64,000 bases of DNA from Minisyncoccota bacterium (GCA_018062765.1 JAGORR010000001.1:356930-420929), one strand, 5' to 3'. Positions 5,285 through 48,700 are shown, counted from the stretch's first letter. Made by a program: numbers and translations. Notes: generated by a model from the sequence alone, not told the origin.

Positions 5285-5935
5285 CTATTTGCTACGGAGC
5301 GCAAGCAAGGAGAGGATGCCGGAGAACGCACCAGCGGACAGTAGTCCGTGCCACAGGAAGTGAGTGCCCATTGTTATGTACTCGCATGCCCACAAATCGA
5401 TAGACCGGAACAGGAGCGCGGATAGGGCGAGCACGAGTGCAAGGATGCCAAGGAGAGCGGCGCGTCCGGATACTCGATAGCTCCTCCACGTGAGTAAAAG
5501 CCCAAGGAGGACAACCGGAATTGCGACGCCTGCGAAAAAAGGTAGTTCAGGGAAGGTGGCATCGACCAGGAGTGCCGAGAGGTATTGGAGCGCGAGAAAT
5601 GCGACAAACATGAGGCCGGCGCCGAGCCATCCGTAGAACGTGCGAGCCCAAAAATATACGAAGAACAGTAGGAATAGAAGTCCTGGTGTCGTGTCGAAGG
5701 CAAGTGCCCACGGGGTGCGCAGTCCGTGCCATAGTAGGCTCCCAACGCCGTTCGTGACTAAGAGAATGCCAAGTACCCAGAGATCGTACGCGCGCGGTGC
5801 GCGGCGGTACACAAGGTAGAGTGCGAGGAGTCCGAACGCGACAATGATGAGGTTGGACCATGTATTCCATGTTTCCGCAGGGAACGCGGTTAACACATCT
5901 GGCGTCTCACAATACTGCGGACCGAAAGGGTACAT
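5285..5935 (-). CDS. Polytopic membrane protein, ceramidase-like
   Basis: 216 aa with about 7 predicted TM helices; ETWNTWSNL motif resembles the alkaline ceramidase family. Confidence 0.4.
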   Translation of the reverse strand: MYPFGPQYCETPDVLTAFPAETWNTWSNLIIVAFGLLALYLVYRRAPRAYDLWVLGILLVTNGVGSLLWHGLRTPWALAFDTTPGLLFLLFFVYFWARTFYGWLGAGLMFVAFLALQYLSALLVDATFPELPFFAGVAIPVVLLGLLLTWRSYRVSGRAALLGILALVLALSALLFRSIDLWACEYITMGTHFLWHGLLSAGAFSGILSLLALRSK

Positions 5936-8011: not shown

Positions 8012-8464
8012 ATGAAACGCACAGCCATCTTCGTTTCTGCACTCTTGCTGACTCTTTCAGCGATGTCCGCCCCAGTGTACGCGCAGGACATGAATCTTGG
8101 GGGTGGAGCGACCGGTAACGCTAGTACCAATCTCGGCGGAGGTCCGTCAGGTAACGGTACCAATCTGGGGGGAGGCTCTCAGGGGTGCGGATTCCTTTTG
8201 AATCCACTCGACAACGAGTGCAATAGCGACATGACGCTCAATGATCTCCTTAGCAAAATATTGAACGTCATCGTCCAGATAGGTGTAGTCGTGCTCACTA
8301 TGATGCTCGTCTACGTTGGTTTTCTCTTTGTCACTGCCCAAGGGAACCCGGAAAATCTTTCCAAGGCCCGGAGCGCACTCATATGGACGATAATCGGCGG
8401 CTTCCTCGTGCTTGGCGCGAGCGTCATTGCAGAGGCGGTTAAGTCGACGGTTGAAGCGCTCTGA
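8012..8464 (+). CDS. TrbC/VirB2-type pilin-like protein (paralog 1 of 5)
   Basis: Signal peptide, Gly/Asn-rich low-complexity segment, then two TM helices separated by NPENLSKARSAL; the same motif occurs in the 22412 and 23928 proteins. Confidence 0.6.
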   Translation: MKRTAIFVSALLLTLSAMSAPVYAQDMNLGGGATGNASTNLGGGPSGNGTNLGGGSQGCGFLLNPLDNECNSDMTLNDLLSKILNVIVQIGVVVLTMMLVYVGFLFVTAQGNPENLSKARSALIWTIIGGFLVLGASVIAEAVKSTVEAL

Positions 8465-8465
8465 T

Positions 8466-8738
8466 ATGGACGGCGAGGAGGTTATCGTCGTGGGACAGAA
8501 AGGCACCTTCGCCTCGATGGTGTACAAGTTCACCGGCTTCATTGACTCCAGTATTATCCCGTTATTGTTTGCGGCCGCATTCCTCGCGATGCTGGTGGGC
8601 ATATTTCGCTATTTCATGATTCCGGGCGAGGAGAATTTGCAGAAGGGTCGCCAGTTTTTGCTGTGGGGCGGTATCGCTTTTGTGTTCATGTTCCTTATCT
8701 GGGGGCTCGTAAACCTACTCCTCGATTCGGTATTCTAG
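8466..8738 (+). CDS. TrbC/VirB2-type pilin-like protein (paralog 2)
   Basis: 90 aa; two TM helices flanking EENLQKGRQFLLWGGIAFVFMFLIWGLVNLL; ATG lies 1 nt after the paralog-1 stop. Confidence 0.55.
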   Translation: MDGEEVIVVGQKGTFASMVYKFTGFIDSSIIPLLFAAAFLAMLVGIFRYFMIPGEENLQKGRQFLLWGGIAFVFMFLIWGLVNLLLDSVF

Positions 8739-8786
8739 CTGTTTATAAGTACACATAGCCTGGCTCAGTACTGATACGCTAAACGT

Positions 8787-9215
8787 ATGAAAAAGACATT
8801 CTCCGCCCTATTGTTTTCACTAGCGCTCATGTTCACACTTACACCGTCCATTGCCTTTGCGCAGGGCCAGCAGCAGCCGCAACCTGATCAGCAGGGCACG
8901 GGTGAGTCACAGCCGAGCGAGCTCGAGCTTCGTATCGGATGGCTTCTCGACTTCGTCGATGGGTACGTCATTCCGCTCATATTCGGACTCGCATTCGTCG
9001 TATTCATCTGGTTCGTGTTCGTGTACTTCATCCTTGGCGGAGCTGAGGAAGAGCAGCGCGCTAAAGGAAAGCAGTTCCTGTTGTGGAGTCTTATTGGGTT
9101 CGTACTCATGCTCTCCTTGTGGGGTATCGTGAACCTGCTTCAGAACACCATAGGATTCGATAATAACTCCAAGCCGTGTCTGCCGGTGTTCGAACAGGAC
9201 AACGAAGACTGCTAA
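8787..9215 (+). CDS. TrbC/VirB2-type pilin-like protein (paralog 3)
   Basis: Signal peptide, Gln/Pro-rich region, two TM helices with EEQRAKGKQFLLWSLIGFVLMLSLWGIVNLL. Confidence 0.6.
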   Translation: MKKTFSALLFSLALMFTLTPSIAFAQGQQQPQPDQQGTGESQPSELELRIGWLLDFVDGYVIPLIFGLAFVVFIWFVFVYFILGGAEEEQRAKGKQFLLWSLIGFVLMLSLWGIVNLLQNTIGFDNNSKPCLPVFEQDNEDC

Positions 9216-9299
9216 TGCGGTTGTCCCCACAGTGCACCCCATACGATTGACTTCGCGCCAAAGCCGCTTACCCTTAGTACATATCCGCTTACCACTGCT

Positions 9300-9689
9300 A
9301 TGAAGAAAATTCTCTTGCTCGTCGCTCTGTTCACCATCCCGGCCATTGCGTTCGCGCAGTTTGGCGAAGGCGGTAATAATCAGGACCTTGGCGATCTCGG
9401 TCAGGAGTTCACTGACATCATCAATAACATCGCGGTTCCGCTTATCTTCGCGCTCGCGTTCGTCATCTTTATTTGGGGAGTATTCAAGTACTTCATTCTT
9501 GGTGGCGGAGACGAGGAGGCTCGCGAGAAAGGTCGCGACCTCATGATTTGGGGACTTCTGGGATTCTTCTTCATGATTTCAGTCTGGGGACTCGTGAATC
9601 TCGTCGTGAACACCATCGACCTGGAGCAAAGCGGAGCACCGGACGAAAATGACTTGCCGGACGCTCCGGGAGTCAGGGACTCGAACTAA
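9300..9689 (+). CDS. TrbC/VirB2-type pilin-like protein (paralog 4)
   Basis: Signal peptide, two TM helices with EEAREKGRDLMIWGLLGFFFMISVWGLVNLV. Confidence 0.6.
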   Translation: MKKILLLVALFTIPAIAFAQFGEGGNNQDLGDLGQEFTDIINNIAVPLIFALAFVIFIWGVFKYFILGGGDEEAREKGRDLMIWGLLGFFFMISVWGLVNLVVNTIDLEQSGAPDENDLPDAPGVRDSN

Positions 9690-9705
9690 CTCATAGTGTA
9701 GGCGA

Positions 9706-9730
9706 AAAGACCCGCTCGGCGGGTCTTTTG
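9706..9730 (+). terminator. Intrinsic terminator AAAAGACCCGC-tcg-GCGGGTCTTTT
   Basis: Hairpin plus T-tract after paralog 4. Confidence 0.6.
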
Positions 9731-9783
9731 CTATCCCCGATTAGTACGTGCCATAGATGAGTGCGGATATATACTGAACAGTA

Positions 9784-10053
9784 ATGAACGAAAGAGTAGA
9801 GATACCGCTTCTTGAGGGCATCAAAACGCAGATAGTGAATCCCATCATCACGCTTCTAGCGCTTGGAGCATTTGTAATGTTTCTTTGGGGTCTCGTCGTA
9901 TTCATATGGAATGCCGGGGATGCGGAGGCGCAGTCGACGGGGAAGCGCGTCATGCTGTGGGGTGTCATTGGGCTTGTTGTCATATTCGGTGCGTGGAGCA
10001 TTGTGGAGCTTATCGGAAGCACGATAGGGGTAGACCCAAATCAGTACCGGTAA
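9784..10053 (+). CDS. TrbC/VirB2-type pilin-like protein (paralog 5)
   Basis: 89 aa; two TM helices with AEAQSTGKRVMLWGVIGLVVIFGAWSIVELI. Confidence 0.55.
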   Translation: MNERVEIPLLEGIKTQIVNPIITLLALGAFVMFLWGLVVFIWNAGDAEAQSTGKRVMLWGVIGLVVIFGAWSIVELIGSTIGVDPNQYR

Positions 10054-10103: not shown

Positions 10104-10610
10104 CTAGTTCGGACCTTCTATCCAGTAATGGAAGACGAAGGGTTCTGCTGTAGAGCTTCGGATGCGAAATCCATCAGCAAACTCGCAGCCTTCTGCTGTC
10201 CAGTTGATCCAGGCTTCATGCACGTAGCACTGGGCCTCGTAGCCGCTCGTCTCTAGCACGTGAAGATCAGCGGCAGGGCAGTTTCTCGGCATCCAAAGCT
10301 CGGGAGCATGCGACCAGTCGTCTGGGGACGACTTGGCCGGAGCTATTCGCGCCTGGGGTCTCGTCTCGCCACTTGGCTTGCCGCAGATTGTTGGCACGTT
10401 TAAGCGCTCATCTTGAGACGAACTTCTGTAGCCACGCTCATTTGTAGCCTGCGTCGGATTCGATTCACCCCAAAACTGGAAGTGGTAGCCTAAGAATCCG
10501 AGCACGCTCAGAGCGATCGTAACCCAAAGCGCAATGTCCCACATGAAGGAATTGCCGCTCTTCTTCGCCTCACCAGGCGAGCCTGCTGAGGGTGTAGCGT
10601 GAGATGCCAC
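10104..10610 (-). CDS. Membrane-anchored hypothetical protein with a Cys-containing C-terminal domain
   Basis: 168 aa; one TM helix (WDIALWVTIALSVLGFLGY); directly downstream of the SPFH gene on the same strand. Confidence 0.4.
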   Translation of the reverse strand: MASHATPSAGSPGEAKKSGNSFMWDIALWVTIALSVLGFLGYHFQFWGESNPTQATNERGYRSSSQDERLNVPTICGKPSGETRPQARIAPAKSSPDDWSHAPELWMPRNCPAADLHVLETSGYEAQCYVHEAWINWTAEGCEFADGFRIRSSTAEPFVFHYWIEGPN

Positions 10611-10621
10611 AAGTTACTCCT

Positions 10622-11860
10622 TCAGATGTTCTTGGTTGCATTATGGCCGACAGCGGCGTCGAGAAGGCTGTTGCCGCTCGACTGCACGATGACCTTTTTT
10701 GCAGTCCCGCGCCGGGCTTGTACCCGGTCGAGAGCCTCGGTCAAGGTCATGATAGACTCCTTTGTTTTTTCAGAAGACTTTTCGGACGCCGCGACGAGCT
10801 TGAGCGCTTGCTCGAGTTCGGCATCGCTGTCCTTATCCTCGGCACGCTTCTCTGCGTCTTCCGCTGCGGCCTTGTTCTGTGCCAGTAGCATCACAGCATC
10901 TGGAGTGAGACGCGCGACGTTGAATCGCGTGATCTTAACACCAAGCTGCCGTACGTCACCGACACCGTTCGCAACCGCAGTGTTGAGGAAGAACTCAATC
11001 TCCTTCTCAACCTCGCGTTGCGCGGCGCGCTGCTCCTTCGCTTCGAGGCCCGCGCCTGCCTCAAGGAAGTAGGCTACGGGGTCGTCGATCGCTTTAAGCG
11101 TTCCGTCCTGAGTCTTCGCCTCGTAGTTCGTGGCAGTGATACCGAGACGTTTGATCTGCGCTTCGTCGACTTTCCCGCTTGCGTCGCGAGGAAGCTCAGC
11201 CATCTTGGTGTTCGCGATCATCGTGATGAGCTGAACGGATAGTGGAAGCTTGAGGAACAGGAACTGCTCCCAGGTATGGAAGAGTGCTGCACCACGCATG
11301 GCCTCCTTCGTCATGCCTTCAACGATGCTTCGGACGCCGTTCATGAGGCCGCTCTTGATCAACTCCTTCATGCGCTGAGGCCCGATCGGTCTTCCGCTGT
11401 CGTCCTTGGCTTCATGGTCTGGCTCGATCGTAAGATCGACCTTCACATCCACGGAACCGCCCGCGGTCTGTTTGCCCTCCTTGTCGGTCGCCTTGCAGGT
11501 GACCGAGAATGGGGCAAATTCGACATCGAGACGGGTTACGTCAATTGGTATCAGGCCGATTTCAAACGGCAGGTAGTCTGCCGTCATGTAGTCGCCTGGT
11601 CCGACGAGGATGTCCTGCGGTTCGCCATAGCAAGTCACCAAGGCGACATGCTGCGGCTTGGCAGAGACGTTCGTTTTCCAGCCCATCTTCACCATGAGGA
11701 TTCCGAGAGTGGCAAAGCTGACACCCATGAGGTAGTTCCCGTCGACTCGGTAGGCGAGAAACGCACAGAGCGCGCCGACCGCCATAAGTATGACGGCGAT
11801 GCGCCACAACTTCGAACTGAAGTCAGGACCGACTATGTATTGGCTTACAAGGTTCTTCAT
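10622..11860 (-). CDS. SPFH/band-7 (stomatin/flotillin-like) domain protein
   Basis: 412 aa; N-terminal TM helix, SPFH-like core and a Glu/Ala/Lys-rich coiled-coil C-terminus. Confidence 0.6.
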   Translation of the reverse strand: MKNLVSQYIVGPDFSSKLWRIAVILMAVGALCAFLAYRVDGNYLMGVSFATLGILMVKMGWKTNVSAKPQHVALVTCYGEPQDILVGPGDYMTADYLPFEIGLIPIDVTRLDVEFAPFSVTCKATDKEGKQTAGGSVDVKVDLTIEPDHEAKDDSGRPIGPQRMKELIKSGLMNGVRSIVEGMTKEAMRGAALFHTWEQFLFLKLPLSVQLITMIANTKMAELPRDASGKVDEAQIKRLGITATNYEAKTQDGTLKAIDDPVAYFLEAGAGLEAKEQRAAQREVEKEIEFFLNTAVANGVGDVRQLGVKITRFNVARLTPDAVMLLAQNKAAAEDAEKRAEDKDSDAELEQALKLVAASEKSSEKTKESIMTLTEALDRVQARRGTAKKVIVQSSGNSLLDAAVGHNATKNI

Positions 11861-20730: not shown

Positions 20731-20758
20731 CCGAAACCGCCCGAAAGGGCGGTTTTGC
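20731..20758 (+). terminator. Intrinsic terminator AAACCGCCC-gaaa-GGGCGGTTTT after rpmG
   Basis: Hairpin plus U-tract. Confidence 0.65.
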
Positions 20759-20859
20759 ATTACTCAGGCCAGCTTGACGAGGGGTCTTTCATGCAGCAGA
20801 GTGCGCACGGACCAGATACCGGATTCCCCGGTCACATCATCTGGCAGAGAGAGGTTCGA

Positions 20860-21342
20860 ATGAATTTCTGGCAAAAGCTTGGGATCGCGGTCGGTGCGCT
20901 TCTCGTCCTCACGATGCTCGGCTACGGCTTCTTCCGCGCCGGTTTCGTCGGCAAGGTCGAGAACTACGAGATCGGTTACGTCTTCCATCCGCTCTCAGGT
21001 GAAATCGAACGGCTCGATCGGCCCGGCTACCATCTGATGCTGCCGTGGGATAACCTCGGCGTCATCGACAAGCGCCCGATGCAGGTTTGCATCGCCGCGA
21101 ACAAACGCGTCCTCAACTGCAAGTTAGTGCAGTTCAACCCGAGCGAGGAGGGACTCAAGACGTTCCTCAGCTGGCACGGCGTCGACTACGCGAGCGGGAC
21201 AGTCGCCTCGGCCGGCTCGGGATCCCCTCTCGCGGAGATCCTGATGAGCTATGCATACGACGGGTCGGGGAAGACCTATCCCTTCCTCACGGTCATCCGC
21301 GAGATGAAGGGGATAGATGCTGACGCGGCATCCGTGCAATGA
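20860..21342 (+). CDS. Membrane-anchored SPFH-N-terminal-like protein (paralog A)
   Basis: 160 aa; N-terminal TM helix; VENYEIGYVFHPLSGEIERLDRPGYHLMLPW resembles the start of the SPFH domain; RBS GAGAGG; paralogous to the next gene. Confidence 0.4.
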   Translation: MNFWQKLGIAVGALLVLTMLGYGFFRAGFVGKVENYEIGYVFHPLSGEIERLDRPGYHLMLPWDNLGVIDKRPMQVCIAANKRVLNCKLVQFNPSEEGLKTFLSWHGVDYASGTVASAGSGSPLAEILMSYAYDGSGKTYPFLTVIREMKGIDADAASVQ

Positions 21343-21791
21343 GGACCGTCGCGTACGCAACCCTCATGGGCCTCGCGATTGCGCTCGCTTCGTTCTATCT
21401 GCTCTGCGTGAACTATCTGGGTGCGAACGAGCGCGGACTTGCCTACGACGTGTTCTCGGGCGAGCTCTTCTTGCAGGAGCAGCCGGGCATCCAAGTGACC
21501 CCGCCGTGGATCTTCACGACGAGAATCGACCTGGAGCCGAATAAGGTGTGCGTCACTTCGACGGCGCATGCCCGGTTCAACTGCAGGCTTGTCCAGTTCA
21601 TACCGGAGGAATACCGTGCGTTCCTCGAGGTCGAAGGGTGGCGCTGGTATTGGTGGAGCAATCGCATCTCCTTCAACTGGGGGTACGACGACGAGTACCG
21701 AGGGTTCCGCGACGTGCTGCGCGGCTATGCACTCTCCGGCCAGGACTACCCGTTCATCCGCGTTCTCGAGGAGTTCGAAGAAGGAGCCTGA
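21339..21791 (+). CDS. Membrane-anchored SPFH-N-terminal-like protein (paralog B)
   Basis: 150 aa; ATGA overlap with paralog A; shares ...N(C)KLVQF.P.E... with paralog A. Confidence 0.4.
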   Translation: MRTVAYATLMGLAIALASFYLLCVNYLGANERGLAYDVFSGELFLQEQPGIQVTPPWIFTTRIDLEPNKVCVTSTAHARFNCRLVQFIPEEYRAFLEVEGWRWYWWSNRISFNWGYDDEYRGFRDVLRGYALSGQDYPFIRVLEEFEEGA

Positions 21792-21895: not shown

Positions 21896-22096
21896 ATGTC
21901 ACGCACTAAGGGAGTCGACCTGCCGACTCATCTGCAGGAACTCGCTGACCGCATCGACGCGAACGATGACTCGTTCGGGAATCCTATGAAGCTCAAGTTT
22001 GCTTCGGAAGATCGTGTCGATCTACGCCAGCAGATGTTTGAGGCCGGGTACACCGTCGACGAAGTCGATGCGGTAACTGGAAGTAACTGCGATTAA
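21896..22096 (+). CDS. Small acidic hypothetical protein (66 aa)
   Basis: Strong RBS GAAGGAGG 6 nt upstream of the ATG; followed by a hairpin terminator at 22105-22130. Confidence 0.5.
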   Translation: MSRTKGVDLPTHLQELADRIDANDDSFGNPMKLKFASEDRVDLRQQMFEAGYTVDEVDAVTGSNCD

Positions 22097-22198
22097 CCAC
22101 CGATAGCCAGCAGCTGCTGGCTATCGTCTTTATATGGGTGCGGCTCCCAGGTGGTCACAAATACTTCCGCGTCGACACTTGGAAGTTTCGCGACCCCG

Positions 22199-22239
22199 CC
22201 AAAAAGGAAAAACCTGGAGCAGTCCAGGTTTTTCCTTTT
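22199..22239. terminator. Bidirectional terminator AAAAAGGAAAAACCTGG-agcag-TCCAGGTTTTTCCTTTTT
   Basis: 17-bp stem flanked by A/T tracts, immediately 3' of the minus-strand tRNA-Trp. Confidence 0.6.
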
Positions 22240-22313
22240 TGGCGGGCCCAGTAGGAATCGGACCTACGCTAACGGTTTTGGAGACCGTTGTACTACCACT
22301 ATACGATGGACCC
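22240..22313 (-). tRNA. tRNA-Trp (anticodon CCA), CCA end encoded
   Basis: Minus-strand fold: acceptor GGGTCCA/TGGGCCC, anticodon stem ACGGT/ACCGT with loop CTCCAAA, T arm GTAGG-TCCGATT-CCTAC, discriminator G + CCA. Confidence 0.8.
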
Positions 22314-22411
22314 GTTGTGCAAATGGCGAGCTACCTCTAGACGATACCAGAGGCGCGTTCGTGGGGAAAGCAGCACGCACTAGCCATTATTGAAGCTACA
22401 ATCAAAGCCAC

Positions 22412-23368
22412 ATGCGCCGCTTGGCACTTTACCTCCTCGCAGCTTCTCTCATACCGCTTGCCGCGGCGGCACAAGGGCTTCCGTCAGGCTCAATCATCCC
22501 GGACCTCGATGAGGGAGATCAGAACCTGCGCACGTGCGCTGCAGGTTGGAAGGCGGTTCTCATAATATCGGGAGGGTTCCTAGAGCTCGCAATTTACATC
22601 GCGATGCTTATCGCCGTTCTCGTTATCGTCTATGCAGGGATTATATTCCTGTTTAATGCGACAAACCCCGAGAACCTGTCGAAAGGGAAAAAGATTCTTG
22701 GAAACGCGGCGATTGGTCTTCTTATTACGCTTTGCGCATGGCTACTTGTGAATACGGTGCTCACAAGCCTGGGCGCAGGAGACATCGCAAGCCGCACAAG
22801 CGTCATAGGTTCAGGCGGCTCGCTCTGTATCACGATACAACCTCCGCAATCTCAAATACCAACCAGTCAGGAAGTAGCTGCCGGTTTGCCACTGGCACCA
22901 CCTCCTCGAGGTACCGGCTCGTGTGACCCGATTGCTGTGCGCGCAGCCGCAGCGGCCGGTGGGTACCAAATCTCGGAGCGAGAGGCGAACACATTTGCCT
23001 GCCTTGCAGGTCCCGAGAGCTCGTGCGGCGCAAATGTCGATGGTGCGACGACGCCTTCTGGGCAGCGTACGAGTGCAGCGGGTCCGTGGCAGAACATTCT
23101 TGGTTTTAAGGATAAGTGCCACTCACTCAACATCCCCGCCTGTGGCAACTTGCAGTGTCACCAGGCATTTTCAGGCGGAGTGGAGAAGTCTGATCCGGCC
23201 TCGAGAGCTCTCGCTGCCAAGTGTCGTCAGGCACTTGCAAACCTTACGTGCGCTGCCGCCGCAGCCGTGTGTCTTAATAACGCGAGCGGAAACGACTTCA
23301 GCGACTGGACTGCGGATTCGCGCAGCTCGAAACAGAAGAAGTGTATTCGCGACCATGCGGGGCTCTAG
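22412..23368 (+). CDS. Pilin-domain protein (TrbC/VirB2-like two-TM module) with a C-terminal Cys-rich extracellular domain
   Basis: 318 aa; signal peptide; TM-NPENLSKGKKIL-TM module like the paralogs at 8012 and 23928; about 200-aa C-terminal region with at least 14 Cys. Confidence 0.5.
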   Translation: MRRLALYLLAASLIPLAAAAQGLPSGSIIPDLDEGDQNLRTCAAGWKAVLIISGGFLELAIYIAMLIAVLVIVYAGIIFLFNATNPENLSKGKKILGNAAIGLLITLCAWLLVNTVLTSLGAGDIASRTSVIGSGGSLCITIQPPQSQIPTSQEVAAGLPLAPPPRGTGSCDPIAVRAAAAAGGYQISEREANTFACLAGPESSCGANVDGATTPSGQRTSAAGPWQNILGFKDKCHSLNIPACGNLQCHQAFSGGVEKSDPASRALAAKCRQALANLTCAAAAAVCLNNASGNDFSDWTADSRSSKQKKCIRDHAGL

Positions 23369-23383
23369 CGCTATACTTTACCT

Positions 23384-23926
23384 ATGAGCCGAACAGCCTT
23401 TTGGATACTCGCACTCGCATCGGTTGGGCTTTTGGCTGCTGGCACACTTTTCTATCTCAATTTGAATCCTGAGCCGGAAGCTCCTCCCATGGTAACTCCT
23501 GACCCATTTGGGAGTACTAACGATGGCGTAATTATTACGGCCGTGGGCGGGGAGGACATACGCGCTCGTGACTTCGTTAACGATGGCGAGACTGAACCTG
23601 ATCCCGGTAATCCCGGAACGTACTTCCTTGCCGGTTATTTCGGCTACTGCGACGGGGACGAGGAGTGTGAACCTATTGCAACAAGCGACTTCAACATTAA
23701 GTACGATAGCAAGATTGATGCCTTCACGATCGGTCTTGCCACCGAGCCGATAGGTGAAGTTAGGAAGCGTGCAGAAGCATTTCTAATGAAGAAGCTCGGG
23801 ATTGGGGAAAATGATATGTGTGCACTCAATTACTATGTCGGCACTTCGTATTGGGTAAATGAAACTTACTCGGGAGGTAATCTTGGGTGGAGTTTCTGTC
23901 CCGGCTCCATAGCACTTCCTGACTAG
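23384..23926 (+). CDS. Secreted/anchored hypothetical protein
   Basis: 180 aa; N-terminal hydrophobic signal/anchor; no recognisable domain. Confidence 0.4.
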   Translation: MSRTAFWILALASVGLLAAGTLFYLNLNPEPEAPPMVTPDPFGSTNDGVIITAVGGEDIRARDFVNDGETEPDPGNPGTYFLAGYFGYCDGDEECEPIATSDFNIKYDSKIDAFTIGLATEPIGEVRKRAEAFLMKKLGIGENDMCALNYYVGTSYWVNETYSGGNLGWSFCPGSIALPD

Positions 23927-23927
23927 T

Positions 23928-24839
23928 ATGCGACGTACTACGACATTGCTCCTGCTTCTCCCGTTGCTACTTACAGCTATGCCCGCGCATGCGCAGTTCA
24001 CCGAGGGCTGGACCATCGTCCCGGCAGCGTGCCATTCGTGCCCTGCGGCTTGGGTTTGCGTACTTGAGATGCTCAACAATCTGGTGACGCTCATCATGAC
24101 CATCGCGGTCTTAATCGTCGTACTCGTCATCACCTACGCCGGCATCCTGCTTGTGTTTACTGCGACGAACCCCGAGAACAAGAGCAAAGCAAAAAGCATG
24201 CTTATTAATGCTGCGGTAGGTCTCGTCATCGCTCTTGGCGCGTGGCTCATCATCGATAAGGTCCTCGAGTCTTTGGGTGCGGGCGGTATAGACGAGACAA
24301 CGCGCGTTATTGGTACCGGTGGCAGCGCATGTGTTGTTGCTCAGGATCCGATCACTGAGCCGCCTGAGGGAACGGATCCATCGCCTATTACTCCCGGTCC
24401 TGGCGGTGGAGGCAGCGGCGCTAATTGCCCGGTCCCGGCGGCGTCCGGGATGGTGGCATTCCCTGCGGAGGCTACAAGCGGTGAAACTGAATACGCAACA
24501 CCGAGTACGGTCGAGAACTTCCTTGCGATGCGCGCCGCAGCGCTTGCCGATGGAATTGACATTAAGGTGACTGACGGATATCGGTCCGAAGCCGAACAGG
24601 TTCAGTTATGGTATCGCTACAATCAGGACACGAGCCAAGTCGCAAGGCCGTGTACGCTAGGTGGCAGCGGTTCAAACCACAACTCAGGTGTCGCTCTGGA
24701 CCTCACCGTCGGCTGTAGAAAGACAGATAGTTCCTGTGATAGCGCCCAATACCGATGGCTTAAAGCAAATGGTTCTCAGTGGGGCTTCAACAACAATTTG
24801 CCTACCGATACGGTGCACTGGTCACCATCGGGTCGCTAG
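23928..24839 (+). CDS. Fusion of a pilin-type two-TM module with an M15 (VanY-like) D-Ala-D-Ala carboxypeptidase domain
   Basis: N-terminus TM-NPENKSKAKSML-TM; C-terminus contains ...DGYRSEAEQVQLW...SNHNSGVALDL, the hallmark Zn-peptidase M15 motifs (SxHxxGxAxD). Confidence 0.55.
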   Translation: MRRTTTLLLLLPLLLTAMPAHAQFTEGWTIVPAACHSCPAAWVCVLEMLNNLVTLIMTIAVLIVVLVITYAGILLVFTATNPENKSKAKSMLINAAVGLVIALGAWLIIDKVLESLGAGGIDETTRVIGTGGSACVVAQDPITEPPEGTDPSPITPGPGGGGSGANCPVPAASGMVAFPAEATSGETEYATPSTVENFLAMRAAALADGIDIKVTDGYRSEAEQVQLWYRYNQDTSQVARPCTLGGSGSNHNSGVALDLTVGCRKTDSSCDSAQYRWLKANGSQWGFNNNLPTDTVHWSPSGR

Positions 24840-25687
24840 ACAAGCGCAGAAAGCTTTCGAAGCCACGCCTTCTGACGGCGCGCATACTGCCATAGCTTCG
24901 CGTTAAGGGAAGGGAGAAGTGATGCTTCCTCGCGCTCACCACGCAGATACTCGCCGACAATGCGGTACTCAAGTCCGAGCTCGTTAAGGCGTGCATCACC
25001 CACGCGCTCGCGTGTTCGCCGTACTTCCTCGATGAGTCCCTTCTCGAGCGCCTCCTCAAGACGCGCCTCTATGCGAGGCTTCAATTCCTCAGCCTCCGGG
25101 TTCAGCACTATCCATTCGACTTCGTACTTCTCGGTCAGTGATTCGCGCTCAGGCACCGAGCCCTTGGCTTCGATGATTTCCAGAGCGCGCAAGAGCCGAC
25201 GGCGATTCTTTGGGTCAAGCTCCACAGCTCGCCGCGGGTCTAGTTTCTGAAGTCTAGCGAAGAGTTCTTCGCTAGAAACATCGGCCAGTTCTGACTGAAG
25301 CGCTGGGTTTGTGGGAACTGCTTCTGGTATGCCGCGCAGAAGCGCGTCGAAATAGAAGTGCGTGCCGCCGGCAAGAATTGGAATCTTCCCTCGCGCGTGG
25401 ATATCTTCAATAAAACGCGTCGCATCATCCCGAAAGTCGCCGGCGCTGTAGGAGTCCTCCGGTTCCCGTATGTCGATGAGGTGATGGGGAACGCCACGCA
25501 TCTCTTCCGGCCGAATCTTTTCCGTGCCGATATCAAGCGTTCGATAGACTTGGCGTGAATCGACGGAAATGATTTCGCCCCCTCTCTTAAGAGCTTCATC
25601 GACTGCGCGCGCGGTCTTGCCGCTTGCGGTCGGACCCGCAACGAGAATAAGCCGTATTTTGGCGCTCATAGGGCGAAATGCTATCAT
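24836..25687 (-). CDS. miaA: tRNA dimethylallyltransferase
   Basis: P-loop GPTASGKT near the N-terminus; IPP-transferase-like length and sequence. Confidence 0.85.
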   Translation of the reverse strand: MIAFRPMSAKIRLILVAGPTASGKTARAVDEALKRGGEIISVDSRQVYRTLDIGTEKIRPEEMRGVPHHLIDIREPEDSYSAGDFRDDATRFIEDIHARGKIPILAGGTHFYFDALLRGIPEAVPTNPALQSELADVSSEELFARLQKLDPRRAVELDPKNRRRLLRALEIIEAKGSVPERESLTEKYEVEWIVLNPEAEELKPRIEARLEEALEKGLIEEVRRTRERVGDARLNELGLEYRIVGEYLRGEREEASLLPSLNAKLWQYARRQKAWLRKLSALV

Positions 25688-41963: not shown

Positions 41964-42296
41964 ATGAACATACTCATCCGTTGGCTGCTGTTCGCTCTCG
42001 CTATCTACGTATCTGCATATGTCGTGCCGGACGTGGAGACGACCGTGCCCGCCGCCTTCGTGCTCGCGATCGTACTGGGCCTCATCAATGCGTTCCTGAA
42101 GCCGATTCTCGTGCTTCTGACGCTCCCCATAACGATCGTCACGCTCGGTCTCTTCGCGCTCGTCCTCAACGCACTCCTCGTCATGCTCGCGGACGCCATC
42201 GTGCCTGGGTTCGAGACAGCTGGATTCATTTCAGCGCTCCTGTTCTCAATCGTGCTTGCGCTGGTCGGCTATGTACTGAAGCGCTTCGATGATTAA
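41964..42296 (+). CDS. Phage-holin-4-2 / DUF360 family membrane protein
   Basis: 110 aa; 3-4 TM helices; sequence pattern typical of the DUF360 family. Confidence 0.5.
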   Translation: MNILIRWLLFALAIYVSAYVVPDVETTVPAAFVLAIVLGLINAFLKPILVLLTLPITIVTLGLFALVLNALLVMLADAIVPGFETAGFISALLFSIVLALVGYVLKRFDD

Positions 42297-42989: not shown

Positions 42990-45731
42990 ATGGAGGGAAC
43001 ACGGCAGCTTACGACTCCCGAGGAGGAGCTTGCCTACTTGCGTGCGCAAGTAGAGGAGAAAGAACGCGAGCTCGCGGGGCGCGCGCAGGAAGCACCGCGC
43101 AACACTCTCGTGCACGAGCGTATCCTTCATCACCGGCGCGAGATGCCAGAGACGGTGCTCGCTCCGTCCTACAAGCTACCTGAAGCTGAAGTGGAAGGCA
43201 TCGCGCTGGATCTCGATCCGGATGATAACGACGCAACGATGGCGGAACTTCAGGGAATCATGGAGGAGAAGGGTATCAAGAATGCGCTCTCGGTCCTTGA
43301 AAAGCTCCGGAATCCGCATCTCGATGACGACTTCCATCGATTCCTGGTGCAGTACGTCGTCGCTGGAATGCAGGTGAAGGGGCTCGGGGAACGGGAACCA
43401 GCATGGAAGGCGCTCCACATGACTCTCTACGAGGTCATCCTTCCGGAGCCCGGCAAGGACTCGGACGCGCGAGAGAAGACCTTGAAGGAACTCATCTCCT
43501 CGATGGAGCAGTTCTATGCAGGCATGCTCTCGGTGGGGGATGCGAGCGCGAGCGAGCCGGGCTATTTCTCGATGGAGCTCGCTGTTCCCGCTAATCGTCC
43601 GGAGCTCCTTTTCTATGTCGCTGTGCCTAACGGCAAGCGCGCGCTCTTTGAGCAGCAGCTCTTGGCAACCTTTCCGAACGCGAACATTCGTCCGCAGCCG
43701 AACGATTACAACATATTCAGCGAGGATGGCGTTGCCGTAGGCGCCTCTGCGACGCTAGCTGACAAAGGCGTGCTTCCTCTCAAGGATTATGCTGATTTCG
43801 ACTACGACCCGTTGAATACGGTTCTGGGTGCCTTCGCGAAGATCGAGAAGGCGAGCGAGGGAGCGGCGCTCCAAGTCATCATCGAGCGCGATACGCACCA
43901 CCTGGAACATTACCGCCGGATACTCGGAGCGCTCCGTCGCGGCGAATCGAAGGATCGTGCGCTCTCGATGCCGGAGACATTCGTGGGCGAGGCCGCGCGC
44001 GAGATCGGGTCAGCGCTCTTCCCGGGCTCACGCAAATGGGAGAACGAAGTTGAGAAGAGAGCCGAAAGGAAAGATGGGAACCAGGCTTTGATTGAGCAGA
44101 TAGAGAAGAAGATCGCAGCTCCCATCGTAAAGACGACGCTCCGTCTCATGGTGTCCTCGCCGACCCACACCCGCGCGGAGTCAGGGCTCGCGGACCTTGA
44201 GGCGGCATTCAATCAGTTCACCAACACCGTAGGCAACAAAATCAACTGGAATCGGTTCTCAGGCACCAAGGTACAGAGCCTTTTCCATGCATTCTCTTAC
44301 CGTTTGCCGGCGAAGGACGCGATACCGCTTTCTCTTCGAGAGGTCACGAGCCTCTACCACTTCCCGCCCGAGGGCATCAGCTCTACGCCGCAACTCCGGC
44401 AGTCGCGCTTCACTGCGGCCGCTGCGCCCTTGGATCTCCCTGACTCGGGGACGTATCTCGGGGATAACGAGTTCCGCGGACGGAAGACTGCGGCATTCCT
44501 GTCGCCGGAGGACCGCATGCGGCACCTCTATGTCGTCGGACAGACGGGAACCGGTAAGTCGGTATTCATGAGGAATCTCGCCATACAGGACATCAAGGCA
44601 GGGAACGGCGTCTGCTTCATCGACCCCCACGGGAACGACATCCTCGATATCCTCGCGGCTGTACCTCCCGAGAGATACGAGGATGTCATCTATTTCGATC
44701 CGGCGAACCTGGCGCGTCCGTTCGGCCTCAACTTGCTTGAATACGATGCGAGCCGCCCAGAGCAGAAAACCTTCATCGTTAATGAGATCCTCGCGATATT
44801 CCGCCGCCTCTACGGGGACGTGCCGGAGTCGATGGGTCCTGCGTTCGAGCAGTACTTCCGCAACTCAACCCTCCTGGTGATGGAGGACCCGGCATCGGGC
44901 TCGACCTTACTCGATATCGCGCGAGTCCTTTCGAACAAGGAGTTCCGCGACCTGAAACTCTCGCGAAGTAATAATCCGGTCATAAACCAGTTCTGGAACG
45001 AGATAGCGACGAAGGCTGAAGGAGAGGCATCGCTTCAAAACATCGTTCCGTACATCACTAACAAGTTCGATGACTTCACCGCGAACGACTTCATGCGGCC
45101 AATCGTCGGGCAGCAGGAATCCTCGTTCAAATTCCGTGAGGTGATGGACAACAAGAAGATACTCCTTGTGAACCTCTCTAAAGGAAGGCTCGGGGAACGA
45201 AACGCCAACCTCCTGGGCCTCATCCTCGTCGGGAAGATATTCATGGCTGCGCTCTCTCGTGCAGATAACCCGAGGGCAGACTACGCGCCGTTCTACCTCT
45301 ATATCGACGAATTCCAGAACATAACTACGGACTCCATACCGGGAATCCTCTCCGAGGCTCGCAAATACCGGCTTTCGCTTACCATGGCGCACCAGTTTCT
45401 GGCGCAGGTGGATGAGAAGGTGCGGGATGCCGTGTTCGGGAACGTCGGCTCCATGGCCGTGTTCCGCGTCGGCGAGGAAGATGGCGAGTACTTCGAGAAG
45501 CAGTTCGCGCCGGTGTTCTCCGCGCTCGATTTCGTGAACATAGAGAATTACAACGCGTACGTCAGACTCCTTGCGCGCGGCGTGCCGCAGAAGCCATTCA
45601 ATATAAAGACGCCGCCACCGGCCGCCACGAACCCTGCGCAGGTGGACGACCTCAGAGAGCTCTCAGCACTCGTCTACGGCCGCGACCGTACACAGGTGGA
45701 AAACCTTATCAGAAGCAGGTACATGTCATAA
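42990..45731 (+). CDS. Large P-loop NTPase, T4SS-type (VirB4/TraC/TraD-like) or HerA/DUF87-like, with an N-terminal ~480-aa domain of unknown function
   Basis: 913 aa; Walker A GQTGTGKSVF and Walker B LYIDEFQN in the C-terminal half; no N-terminal TM helices. Confidence 0.5.
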   Translation: MEGTRQLTTPEEELAYLRAQVEEKERELAGRAQEAPRNTLVHERILHHRREMPETVLAPSYKLPEAEVEGIALDLDPDDNDATMAELQGIMEEKGIKNALSVLEKLRNPHLDDDFHRFLVQYVVAGMQVKGLGEREPAWKALHMTLYEVILPEPGKDSDAREKTLKELISSMEQFYAGMLSVGDASASEPGYFSMELAVPANRPELLFYVAVPNGKRALFEQQLLATFPNANIRPQPNDYNIFSEDGVAVGASATLADKGVLPLKDYADFDYDPLNTVLGAFAKIEKASEGAALQVIIERDTHHLEHYRRILGALRRGESKDRALSMPETFVGEAAREIGSALFPGSRKWENEVEKRAERKDGNQALIEQIEKKIAAPIVKTTLRLMVSSPTHTRAESGLADLEAAFNQFTNTVGNKINWNRFSGTKVQSLFHAFSYRLPAKDAIPLSLREVTSLYHFPPEGISSTPQLRQSRFTAAAAPLDLPDSGTYLGDNEFRGRKTAAFLSPEDRMRHLYVVGQTGTGKSVFMRNLAIQDIKAGNGVCFIDPHGNDILDILAAVPPERYEDVIYFDPANLARPFGLNLLEYDASRPEQKTFIVNEILAIFRRLYGDVPESMGPAFEQYFRNSTLLVMEDPASGSTLLDIARVLSNKEFRDLKLSRSNNPVINQFWNEIATKAEGEASLQNIVPYITNKFDDFTANDFMRPIVGQQESSFKFREVMDNKKILLVNLSKGRLGERNANLLGLILVGKIFMAALSRADNPRADYAPFYLYIDEFQNITTDSIPGILSEARKYRLSLTMAHQFLAQVDEKVRDAVFGNVGSMAVFRVGEEDGEYFEKQFAPVFSALDFVNIENYNAYVRLLARGVPQKPFNIKTPPPAATNPAQVDDLRELSALVYGRDRTQVENLIRSRYMS

Positions 45732-45743
45732 TCACAGCTATAT

Positions 45744-48700
45744 ATGGCAGGCGAGGGTCCAGGAAACGGTAATGGCAGCAAGCTCGCGGAGCAGCTTGCG
45801 AAACTCGTCGAGCAGAAAGGCCTTCAAGGGATGGCAGTCGCTGATGCTGGTGAGGAACAGGTGCCTGCTCAAGTTGCCACCCCCGCTGTTGTTGAACAGC
45901 ATGAAGTGCCCGTTTCCAGCTACGATGAGGCAGCGGTCTCGAAAGCGCACAAGCGATTCACCGCGCTCATAAGGGGGCTTGAGAAACACCCCGAGATACA
46001 GGTACGTCCTGATGCGCTTGCGAGCCTGAAGACGGCATTCGATGCTATGGGTAAGGCAAAAGGCAGGCTGAAGGCTATGGATGACGCGAATGAAGTGAAT
46101 CACGAACGCCGTAAGAAACAGTTGGATATCATCCAGGCATCGTTTTCCGTGATATTCGGAGAAATCGGAAACGAAGTATCCGAAGGGCTGCGCCCGGTCG
46201 ATGGGACTGCGACAGGAAGGAACGAGGCCACTTCGCGCGACGAAGTGGATACGCGCTACTATCCGCTCGCAGATGAGATTTTCGCAAAGGGGTATAACCC
46301 GAATGAGCTCGAATCGTGGCGAAACATCGCTAAGCGAGTCAAAAGGCCGATTCCAGGAAAGCCTTACAACCCGGGGATATCGCTTACTGATCGCGAGATA
46401 CGCGCGGTTCGCGCCGAACTTGCCAAACTCGAGCAGAAGGACCCGATAGTGCTTCCGACTAAAGCTGCGTCAGAACCAGCACCGCAAGTGCCGCGCGAGC
46501 GGGCACGAAAGCCAAAGCGATCGGAAAAGGATCGCGAGTCACGCGCGATTCGCGATGAACCAAGCATATACGACTCACCTGGCCCGATGCGCCGTACCGA
46601 CATGGACCGCATTGATCCTGCGGTCGTATCAGGGGTAGTTGGAACGTTTGACACGAATGCTCCTGATACGGTTACGGAGCCTTCTGGAGCGGATGCCGCC
46701 TCTGAACTCGACGTCGAGCCTGCTATTCACGACAGCACGCCGAGGCTCCCTGCGGATAAGTTCAAGGATGCGACCCCGAAGAGCGTACGCGAGAGTCTGC
46801 GCCGTTCGATACTGAGTATCAAAGAGCTGCCGCCTACGGAAATGCCAGCCGGGGCTATCGATACCTTGCCGCCTGACCTCGGGTTGAGAACCACTACTCC
46901 CGCAAGAGCGGAAGCGCTGAGGTCCGTAGTCACCCCGCCCGGATCGATAGACACGCTTCCTCCGGTCATCGATACTGCGCCGCAAGCATCTGCAGCCCCA
47001 GAGCCTGTGCTGGTTGCGGAGGTAGATCCGGACGCCGCTGATGCGGCACTTGCGCACGCCGTGTTCCCGAGTGCGTCAACGGAAGGTGTAGCAAATCTTC
47101 CCGCAGTGGTGAATTCGGAAGCTACGCCTACATGGCAGCCGCTCTCGGAGCAAGGTCTCACGCAAGAAGAACTTGTGCATCGGCGTGCTGAGCGCCGTGT
47201 GCAGATTGGCGTCGAGGCTGGCCTTACACAGGAGCTTGGCGACATGTACAACGCACGCGAAGCGTACCTCACTGCGTACCGGGCATTTTATGCGAATAAC
47301 AACCTGGCTGCGCGCGCTGCAGTACAGGCAACGAATTCCACCGAGTGGCAGAACTTGAAGCGACTTGAGGCTGCCTCGGCGACAGCAAGCCTTGCATACC
47401 AGCAAGCACTCGAGCGTTCCGCGACGGAACGGCTAACGGCTAACGCGCCTGAGCGCGAGGCGCTGCTACGTGCAAAGGGAGAGGCCAGGTACCTACTTCT
47501 TGTCGGCGTCGGCTGGAATGCGCCGCGGTACGAAGACGGCCGGCTGATGTCTAAAGAGGACTACGTGAACCAGTACATGACGCAGTACCAGGGCCGCGTA
47601 CTCGATCGCTACATGTCTACTATTGCGTGGCGCGAAGTCACAGCCGGGAACGAGAACGCACGCATCGAGACTCGTGCGGAGGCGCTAGGAGCAAAACAAC
47701 GCAACGTCTTCGATAGGATGCGCTCGTTGGTCCAGGCAACGAACCAGGGACTCGAACGGACGCTTACTCCGACGGGCGCTCGCGCATTCCGTATCGTCGC
47801 AGCTGCGGGCGTCGGTACCGTGCTTGGCGGGTGGGCAGCAGGTGCGATGCGTGGTGCCTCGGTTATCGCAGGTATGCTCACTGGCTCCACCGCGGGTGCG
47901 GCAGCAGGCTCCTTGTTCCAGCGTCTCGTGGGTGCGCGCCGGGCAGCTGCCGTTGATACTGTGCGACACTCGCGTATCACAAGTGCCGCAGACTTAACAG
48001 CGGCAGCTGCTGCGTTCCGCAAGGGTGACGCTGCGCAAATAGCAGCTACGCGAAGGCGTTGGGAGATGGGCGTCGCGCTCGGCGTCGCCTTCCTTACGGC
48101 ACGTTCTATGCCGGGACTAGAGCCCGTCGTTACTAGCTCCCTTAGCGATTTGAGGCGCATCGGCGGAGAGATTATGGGAACAGGCGAGAGCGCCGGCGCG
48201 ACAGCGGCCGTACCCACTGGTGGCGAGTCAGCGTCGCCTTCGTCAGCGGTCACGGGAGGCGCTGGCGGCAGTGAAGGCCAGTCTGCGCCTGTCGCCGGGG
48301 GTGAGAGCGGTACGGGAAGCGGAGCACCAAGAGCAGGCGGTGAAGGCTCCGGGGGCGCAGCTCCGCTCGACTCATCCGTGCCGCCACCTGCGAACAATCC
48401 AGGCCCTGCGGGGAGTCCCTTCGGACGCATTCCGGTACCGACGGATTCCGTTCCGCAGGCGGACGCTATCGGGGGATTCGCTCGTGAGTCGGCGATAATC
48501 TCGGGCGGTAACGGAGGTGACGCCGTGTCGAGTGAAGGACTCGACGATATGCGCGCAGTTGCGGCCGAAGTGCGCGGCACCTCGACAGAATACGTGGCAC
48601 GTTCAGGTGACGGCGGCATTAAGCTCGTCGAAGGTCTCCAGCAGCAGCTTGCGCGCGAGGGCATCACTGAGACGACACCAGGCATTTCAGCTATGACGCG

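Follow-up and report, generated by a model that had tools for sequence, protein, structure and literature searches.

In single-membrane bacteria the wall is opened for a secretion or conjugation channel by envelope-associated proteins such as PrgK (pCF10), TraG (pIP501) and CwlT (ICEBs1), which unite glycan-cleaving (SLT/muramidase) and peptidase domains (PMC12857230, PMC12102498). A survey of 2025, in which profiles of VirB2 (PF18895/PF04956) and VirB1 were searched separately, registered VirB2-like pilins in 1,948 assemblies and few VirB1 homologues, most genomes with VirB2 being devoid of VirB1, and came to the conclusion that pilus biogenesis may do without a VirB1-type hydrolase; arrays of 2–11 pilin genes were found in 383 assemblies of Patescibacteria (PMC12102498). 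VirB2 matches are taken in published surveys as small pilins, and no fusions are mentioned (PMC12102498). In Southlakia epibionticum the cluster SEML1_0006-0019 of the type IV secretion system (T4SS) contains the lysozyme-like SEML1_0006, SEML1_0007 with a C-terminal Hedgehog/DD-peptidase (M15) fold and six PF18895 pilins (SEML1_0014-0019), all of them essential for epibiotic growth (PMC10633639). In this one species tested the T4SS with its VirB2-like pilin array is essential on the host, while its function is “completely unknown” (PMC11665869). Here we describe three adjacent genes, designated A, B and C (22412–24839, plus strand), in a stretch of 64,000 nucleotides from a Minisyncoccota bacterium (GCA_018062765.1, JAGORR010000001.1:356930-420929; hereafter the window, with positions counted from its first letter), where modules of VirB2-like pilins are fused to putative wall hydrolases. 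We give even chances to the reading that this cassette provides a membrane-tethered glycan cleaver and a stem-peptide peptidase, which do a VirB1-type job and are targeted by the pilin module to the sites of pilin assembly.

Like PrgK, TraG and CwlT, the cassette combines glycan-cleaving and peptidase activities at the membrane, as far as these can be read from the domains of A and C. Unlike them, it splits the two activities over two proteins, employs an M15 peptidase rather than CHAP, NlpC/P60 or LytM, is anchored by a VirB2-like hairpin instead of a single transmembrane segment or a lipid and lies outside a T4SS cluster. With Southlakia, a member of the same phylum, it shares the occurrence of PF18895 pilins together with a lysozyme-like enzyme and one of M15 fold. 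There, in contrast, the enzymes are separate large proteins (643 and 1113 aa) encoded beside VirB4, and small pilins stand free of them, whereas in the cassette the two are fused and placed away from the ATPase. Since the domains are fused in one lineage and the genes are clustered in the other, one can assume a functional link between hydrolases and pilins; this parallel and the pairing of glycosidase with peptidase, which is the hallmark of VirB1-type hydrolases, are the reasons to favour a VirB1-equivalent role.

Architecture of the three proteins

The open reading frames (ORFs) of A (22412–23368, 318 aa), B (23384–23926, 180 aa) and C (23928–24839, 303 aa) are co-directional on the plus strand and separated by 15 nt (CGCTATACTTTACCT) and 1 nt, exactly as it was given in the preliminary description of the window, and all strings quoted there were found in the products (FNATNPENLSKGKKILGNAA in A; VFTATNPENKSKAKSMLINA, TDGYRSEAEQV and SGSNHNSGVALDL in C). 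Homologues of A, B and C with 23% to 100% identity occur in the same arrangement in numerous genomes, so that all three are real genes and not chance ORFs. The products of A and C are built alike: a signal peptide is followed by a VirB2-like pilin hairpin, a flexible linker and a C-terminal domain, which is Cys-rich and probably lysozyme-like in A and an M15 (VanY-type) zinc peptidase in C.

The pilin modules are encoded at 22544–22783 in A (residues about 45–124) and at 24048–24284 in C (residues about 41–119). Their earlier assignment to TrbC/VirB2-like modules with two transmembrane helices was borne out by the family T4SS_pilin (PF18895, Pfam cut-off 26.6 bits), which matched A with 36.8 bits (4.2e-9) and residues 47–109 of C with 43.8 bits (2.7e-11), that is, as more than generic anchors; C also gave a TrbC match (7e-4). 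Hydropathy revealed a signal-like N-terminus and long hydrophobic helices at residues 46–86 and 94–114 in A, 41–82 and 89–117 in C. In AlphaFold2 (AF2) models the helices extend over 46–81 and 86–119 in A and, behind a signal helix, form a hairpin of 42–77 and 82–118 in C, followed by linkers (129–167 and 131–154, respectively) with a predicted local distance difference test score (pLDDT) below 50. The loop between the helices reads NPENLSKGKK in A and NPENKSKAK in C, and the signal peptides, judged by eye, would be cleaved after AAA or AHA. The two modules are 46% identical to each other (E=4e-29) and conserved within their families, with invariant Gly/Trp positions. Signal peptide, two long hydrophobic helices, short charged loop and the Pfam family itself are common to A, C and free-standing VirB2, TrbC and PF18895 pilins. 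Small pilins, however, have about 70–120 residues when mature and no extra domain, whereas A and C, unlike the free-standing pilins of Patescibacteria, are 300–320 aa long and bear an enzyme domain of about 145–150 aa past the hairpin. Because of the family and the positive-inside rule, the topology after signal cleavage is most probably as follows: the N-terminus is outside, helix 1 goes inward, the Lys-rich NPEN loop is cytoplasmic and helix 2 goes outward. Linker and enzyme would then lie outside the cytoplasm, in agreement with the abundance of conserved cysteines, and thus the glycan cleaver and the stem peptidase would both face the wall from the outer side of the membrane.

The C-terminal domain of C (24408–24836, residues about 161–303) had been described as a zinc D-Ala-D-Ala carboxypeptidase of M15/VanY type. 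The family stood up to all analyses: VanY (PF02557, cut-off 25 bits) matched residues 191–294 with 50.9 bits (1.8e-13), and structure prediction gave a compact alpha/beta domain of M15 fold (mean pLDDT of the whole protein 83.6, the peptidase mostly above 92). Foldseek placed this model with probability 1.00 next to VanXYc (4mus, 1.1e-6), BaLdcB (4jid/4mph, 2.2e-6), VanY-B (5hnm, 3.9e-6) and Ply500 (2vo9, 5.8e-5); LdcB, VanX and LysB4 were also matched, all in line with the Hedgehog/DD-peptidase fold. C keeps the M15 zinc site H-x6-D...H (ligands H251, D258 and H297) and the conserved Arg (R219), and these four residues are invariant in a 41-sequence alignment of its family, where D294, the candidate for the catalytic base, is at least 90% conserved. 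The specificity label did not survive. In PDB sequences the profile of the family matched LdcB/YodJ (4ox3, 8.9e-10) and the L-Ala-D-Glu peptidase of Listeria phage Ply500 (1.1e-9) almost alike, and the zinc motif SNHNSGVALD is nearer to SNHNYGVAVD of Ply500 than to SEHQTGLAMD of LdcB. The Glu of the E-x-x-H motif of M15B enzymes (VanY, LdcB) is replaced by Asp (D294-T-V-H297), the residue that the M15C endolysin Ply500 has at this place. Since its motifs resemble Ply500 as much as LdcB, “D-Ala-D-Ala carboxypeptidase” is a family label only; C could be a DD- or LD-carboxypeptidase or an L-Ala-D-Glu endopeptidase, that is, it could either trim or cut the stems. Thus, the characterised M15 enzymes (LdcB, VanY/VanXY, Ply500/LysB4) share with C the fold, the GYRS...Q motif, the zinc motif SxHxxGxAxD and the final ligand in xxH, but none of them has a pilin module, and the Asp of C differs from the Glu of LdcB and VanY. 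One protein of this pilin+VanY type (P0058, 382 aa) also matched the thrombospondin type 3 repeat (PF02412).

The C-terminal domain of A (22913–23359, residues about 168–316) is less easily recognised. The preliminary description counted in it at least 14 cysteines; in fact the whole protein has 13, of which 11 follow residue 119. When 1.84 billion representative proteins were searched exhaustively with a profile of this domain, 480 clusters (50% identity) were obtained at E up to 1e-3, in which it is nearly always joined to T4SS_pilin and C-terminal in proteins of 300–350 aa; in four longer proteins (P0121, P0123, P0125 and P0126, 540–724 aa) it is also C-terminal, behind 380–570 extra residues. 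Among 22 homologues E202-S203, G224 and Q227 are invariant, the string AFSGG is kept and 10 cysteine positions reach at least 91% conservation. In 71 diverse homologues E202 and Q227 are still invariant, with S203 and G224 at least 90% conserved. T4SS_pilin was found in 64 of these 71 more distant members, SLT_3 in 18 (best 8.4e-10) and SLT in 2. P0093 exceeds the cut-off of 27 bits with 27.5 bits, and of two genes occupying the position of A in other loci one encodes a canonical SLT domain (L006, 2e-26) and the other matches SLT_3, Destabilase and SLT (L005).

In PDB sequences the profile of the domain matched C-type lysozymes only (the human enzyme best, E=1e-3), with E202 on the catalytic Glu35. 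When a hidden Markov model (HMM) of the family was aligned with human lysozyme, C197, E202, Q227, C244 and C249 fell on C30, E35, Q58, C77 and C81 with 18.9 bits, while about 5000 shuffles gave at most 12.6 bits. A comparison by hhalign with two C-type lysozymes was limited to the catalytic core (P=3.9e-4), and that of the domain profile with the single SLT-bearing protein of L006 was not significant (E=0.16). In the AF2 model, where the domain has pLDDT of about 92, E202 ends the helix 189–203 and is followed by short strands. Asp53, the second catalytic residue of lysozyme, aligns to Ala in A, which suggests a single-Glu chemistry as in lytic transglycosylases. Thus, the domain shares with SLT_3 (PF18896) and C-type lysozymes the catalytic Glu-Ser and the downstream motif G-x-x-Q-I, but differs from them in staying below every Pfam lysozyme threshold, in the Ala at the place of Asp53 and in having no fold neighbour in PDB. 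Based on these data it is probably a divergent lysozyme-like domain of the SLT_3 family with Glu202-Ser203 as the catalytic candidate, and A itself is probably a wall hydrolase. That among PDB sequences an animal C-type lysozyme matches the family best, and that the two agree in three cysteine positions and in the catalytic Glu, is an observation in its own right; the domain may be a bacterial relative of C-type lysozymes, although Foldseek gave no fold match.

Protein B was taken previously for a secreted hypothetical protein. According to hydropathy it has a single hydrophobic segment at the N-terminus (residues 4–27), so that B looks signal-anchored in the membrane rather than free and exposes a conserved, presumably extracytoplasmic domain of about 120 aa. 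It belongs to an orphan family: no match was obtained in Pfam, NCBIfam or PHROG, nor in PDB when profiles of 8 and of 28 sequences were used. At the same time homologues of B are present in all syntenic loci (23–56% identity, the most distant 23%), and in 54 of them C146 and C172 are invariant, while R127, E131 and S170 are 96–98% conserved. Judged by these sequences, B belongs to the A-B-C unit as one of its conserved parts. Perhaps it is a membrane-anchored regulator or scaffold, an idea drawn solely from its constant place between A and C.

Conservation and surroundings of the gene set

The architecture of C was initially called unusual. Within its clade it is common: fusions of PF18895 with PF02557 form about 75 clusters (90% identity) with 34–99% identity, conserved in related genomes, and their named members are Patescibacteria or Paceibacterota. 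The cassette was further studied in 75 species-level loci of GTDB representative genomes scanned with local HMMs. The order [pilin+lysozyme-like]-[B]-[pilin+X] was found in 43 of the 75 loci, X being VanY in 15 of the 43 and another domain of about 180 aa in the remaining 28; other loci are mostly cut by contig ends or contain a single fusion only. In the most divergent locus (L006), which has an unrelated neighbourhood, the set consists of pilin+SLT, B, pilin+VanY and pilin+Peptidase_M15_4, and since it persists in these foreign surroundings, the genes of the cassette travel together. Three loci (L003, L011 and L018) have C alone, without A or B. A permuted order, with pilin+VanY first, then pilin+lysozyme-like and then B, was observed at L021:5797-8324.

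The domains that replace VanY in 28 cassettes (L031-L081; for example L033:5944-6843, L036:5947-6849 and L039:7566-8465) contain many cysteines and an H...D...H pattern and are of three sequence types: SCHYGG...AVDFGD...HLHVS, SH..GYKID...E..HWD and CH..GTCID...HFS. They had no Pfam match except a weak one to Peptidase_M15_3/Hedgehog in L072, none significant among PDB profiles (Sonic hedgehog at E about 1 for one type, T2, and a MurNAc-L-Ala amidase at E=0.019 for another, T3) and only P=4e-4 in hhalign with the VanY profile. As all these matches are weak, we do not claim these domains as M15.

The cassette has stable neighbours. Counted over 81 loci, its flanks contain miaA in 71, ParB in 50, ClpB in 47 and RelA in 46. 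In the window the stop codon of C overlaps that of the convergent miaA (24836–25687; IPPT, 3e-66), and a tRNA-Trp gene (22240–22313, minus strand) lies upstream of A. A scan of 22000–25200 for promoters and terminators detected one strong hairpin (22101–22126, upstream of the tRNA-Trp gene); no sigma-70-like promoter was found in this region, and other terminator-like sites occurred at chance level. Just upstream of the cassette two overlapping genes (20755–21342 and 21339–21791, both plus strand) encode small membrane-anchored proteins of no family, paralogous to each other with 29% identity (E=2e-14). At the matching position of L003 there are also two small genes, and phmmer found no homologues of the window pair in the fetched loci.

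The origin from the candidate phyla radiation (CPR), mentioned before as a possibility, is evident: A and B are 100% identical to KBC38_00240 and KBC38_00245 of a metagenome-assembled genome (MAG) of “Candidatus Pacebacteria bacterium”. The window has a G+C content of about 57% and is rich in housekeeping genes, among them gyrA, ClpB, ParB, RelA/SpoT, TopA, DprA, UvrB/C and Ddl; with Ddl encoded, the organism should make its own D-Ala-D-Ala precursors. Some records bearing the cassette are labelled otherwise. A complete cassette is present in a MAG labelled “Bacillota bacterium” (L069, JBLNCF010000017.1), and many loci bear the label “uncultured Candidatus Saccharibacteria”; among those listed (L007-L040) miaA adjoins the cassette in 19 of 20, as in Paceibacteria. 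Both labels may be unreliable.

Two other places of the window are related to T4SS. Five tandem free-standing T4SS_pilin genes (8012–10053, plus strand; 150, 108, 142, 129 and 89 aa) were recognised by the local HMM, with Pfam values of 2.3e-9 and 4.2e-11, and correspond in NCBIfam to a pilin-like conjugal transfer protein. Their sequences are divergent, and the first one has the NPEN loop of A and C. Together they form a VirB2 array of the type known from Patescibacteria and are candidate assembly partners of A and C. An ATPase similar to VirD4/TraD/TrwB is encoded at 42990–45731 (plus strand, 913 aa), all its matches being weak (DUF87 and TraG-D_C in Pfam, TrwB in PDB at 2.5e-4, TraD at 3e-10 and the VirD4-like CD1115 at 3e-8 in NCBIfam). 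Directly past the pilin array, on the opposite strand (10104–11860), there are genes of two membrane-anchored proteins of 168 and 412 aa that belong to no family. Located 12 nt past the ATPase, an ORF of 1267 aa (45744–49547, plus strand) is of low complexity and rich in Ala, Pro and Glu; it was considered as VirB6 or a hydrolase and rejected in both capacities because of this low complexity and the lack of transmembrane segments and of any family.

Possible roles of the putative hydrolases

According to the VirB1-type reading, A, B and C would make up one conserved operon for a two-enzyme wall-cutting set attached to the cytoplasmic membrane from outside. A would cleave glycan strands, with its single catalytic Glu likelier as a lytic transglycosylase, or else as a muramidase without the second Asp, and C would cut or trim peptide stems. 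A cleavable signal peptide would direct the export of both, and the VirB2-type two-helix hairpin, with its Lys-rich NPEN loop in the cytoplasm, would anchor them, the enzymes hanging outside on disordered linkers of about 25–40 residues, while B would be their membrane-anchored partner. A and C are supposed to share the membrane pool and the assembly pathway with the free VirB2-like pilins of 8012–10053; with the pilin module putting them into this pathway, the wall would be opened only where a pilus or channel is built. The wall in question may be that of the cell itself, which fits the presence of Ddl. In favour of a link to the pilins are the conservation of the modules in A and C and the presence of five free pilins and of the VirD4-like ATPase in the window.

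Several observations weigh against this reading. The C-terminal domain of A itself had no Pfam match even at E up to 10, and Foldseek against PDB left it without a neighbour despite a confident model, so that the lysozyme-like assignment is drawn from sequence profiles. If C is a carboxypeptidase of LdcB/VanY type, it would only trim the stems and open no holes. VirB1-type hydrolases are encoded in T4SS loci, and the cassette is not: in the window it is 12 kb downstream of the pilin array and 18 kb upstream of the ATPase, a homologue of this VirD4-like ATPase was found within about 6 kb in none of the 81 loci, and T4SS families of Pfam were absent within 8–10 kb of L001, L003, L005 and L006, where no dedicated VirB4 model was used. 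For these T4SS no pilus has yet been seen (PMC12857230).

The context suggests another explanation, which we consider less probable, yet worth serious attention: A and C may be housekeeping autolysins, a glycan cleaver and an LdcB-like carboxypeptidase for stem trimming in wall turnover or division, that use the pilin-derived hairpin as a mere anchor with no connection to T4SS or pili. The constant housekeeping synteny (ClpB, cassette, miaA, ParB, RelA, TopA) without a T4SS ATPase beside any of the 81 loci, one more point against the VirB1-type role, is what a vertically inherited core envelope function would give. Among the best matches of C are LdcB and VanY, enzymes that trim a cell's own peptidoglycan, Ddl and own D-Ala-D-Ala precursors suit an autolysin too, and the occurrence of C alone in L003, L011 and L018 points in the same direction. 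For this purpose, however, a single-pass anchor would be enough, yet the full module of signal peptide and hairpin with its family motifs is kept in two paralogues and in hundreds of clusters. Besides, in the essential T4SS cluster of Southlakia a lysozyme-like enzyme and one of M15 fold again accompany PF18895 pilins, and the composition of the cassette is preserved in the different context of L006.

It is rather improbable that A and C are minor pilins which co-polymerise with the free ones and arm a pilus, so that enzymes on its surface or tip dissolve the wall of a host or prey, the T4SS conduit gains access to the host membrane and B keeps the enzymes inactive until assembly. The pilin modules are bona fide members of the Pfam family, and the enzymes are situated past the second helix on flexible linkers (pLDDT below 50) that would let them sit outside the filament. 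VirB2/TraA pili expose the termini of their subunits to the outside, and short additions to the C-terminus of F-pilin are displayed. The motifs SNHNxGVAxD and DxxH of C fit the wall-lytic Ply500 as well as carboxypeptidases, and there are also matches to endolysin PHROGs. Finally, T4SS and pilin arrays of Patescibacteria are essential for epibiotic growth (PMC10633639). On the other hand, a globular domain of 150 aa on every subunit could not be packed in a homopolymer, and sparse incorporation would be required. The genomic context is of housekeeping nature, these Paceibacteria have no known hosts and no pilus was observed.

A prophage lysis cassette, with two-helix holin-like or SAR-type anchors, A and C as endolysins and a spanin- or holin-like B, can practically be dismissed, since, in spite of a superficial likeness of two muralytic enzymes and a small membrane protein to a lysis module and of the similarity of C to endolysin PHROGs (about 1e-7) and to the structures of endolysins Ply500 and LysB4, the flanks of L001, L003, L005 and L006 contain no phage genes, most of the 75 species-level loci keep the cassette at one chromosomal position, PHROG gave nothing meaningful for A or B, the N-terminal modules match T4SS_pilin/TrbC and not holin families, and viral contigs gave one weak match only, to the peptidase domain only.

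Remaining features of the window and significance

Two genes of the window apart from those discussed attract attention. A protein of the family Phage_holin_4_2 (2e-29) is encoded at 41964–42296 (plus strand) among non-phage genes, and a membrane protein of the ceramidase family (PF05875, 9e-14), unexpected in a lineage of reduced metabolism, at 5285–5935 (minus strand).

A full-text literature search found no description of a pilin-hydrolase fusion in the only two papers citing PF18895, and PF18896 was not cited at all. The combination as such is already present in database annotations, where NCBI names these proteins “pilin” or “D-alanyl-D-alanine carboxypeptidase family protein”, and for this reason the cassette is a conserved arrangement of known parts and not a new kind of component. 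What is new here is the probable lysozyme-like identity of the domain of A, the conservation of B in every related locus and the recurrent gene order.

Much of bacterial diversity belongs to Patescibacteria, and the scarcity of VirB1 reported for them could be explained by the fusion of hydrolase domains to pilins; catalogues of VirB2 could be re-read for such fusions. The cassette offers small defined enzymes with residues to mutate (E202 in A; H251, D258, D294 and H297 in C). If A and C are autolysins, the interest is narrower, a pilin hairpin having been reused as an anchor. If they arm a pilus, the breaching of hosts by minimal-genome cells would gain a mechanism, and the essential pilin arrays of Patescibacteria a function. 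If the VirB1-type reading is true, breaching of the wall in these bacteria would be linked directly to the pathway of pilin assembly.

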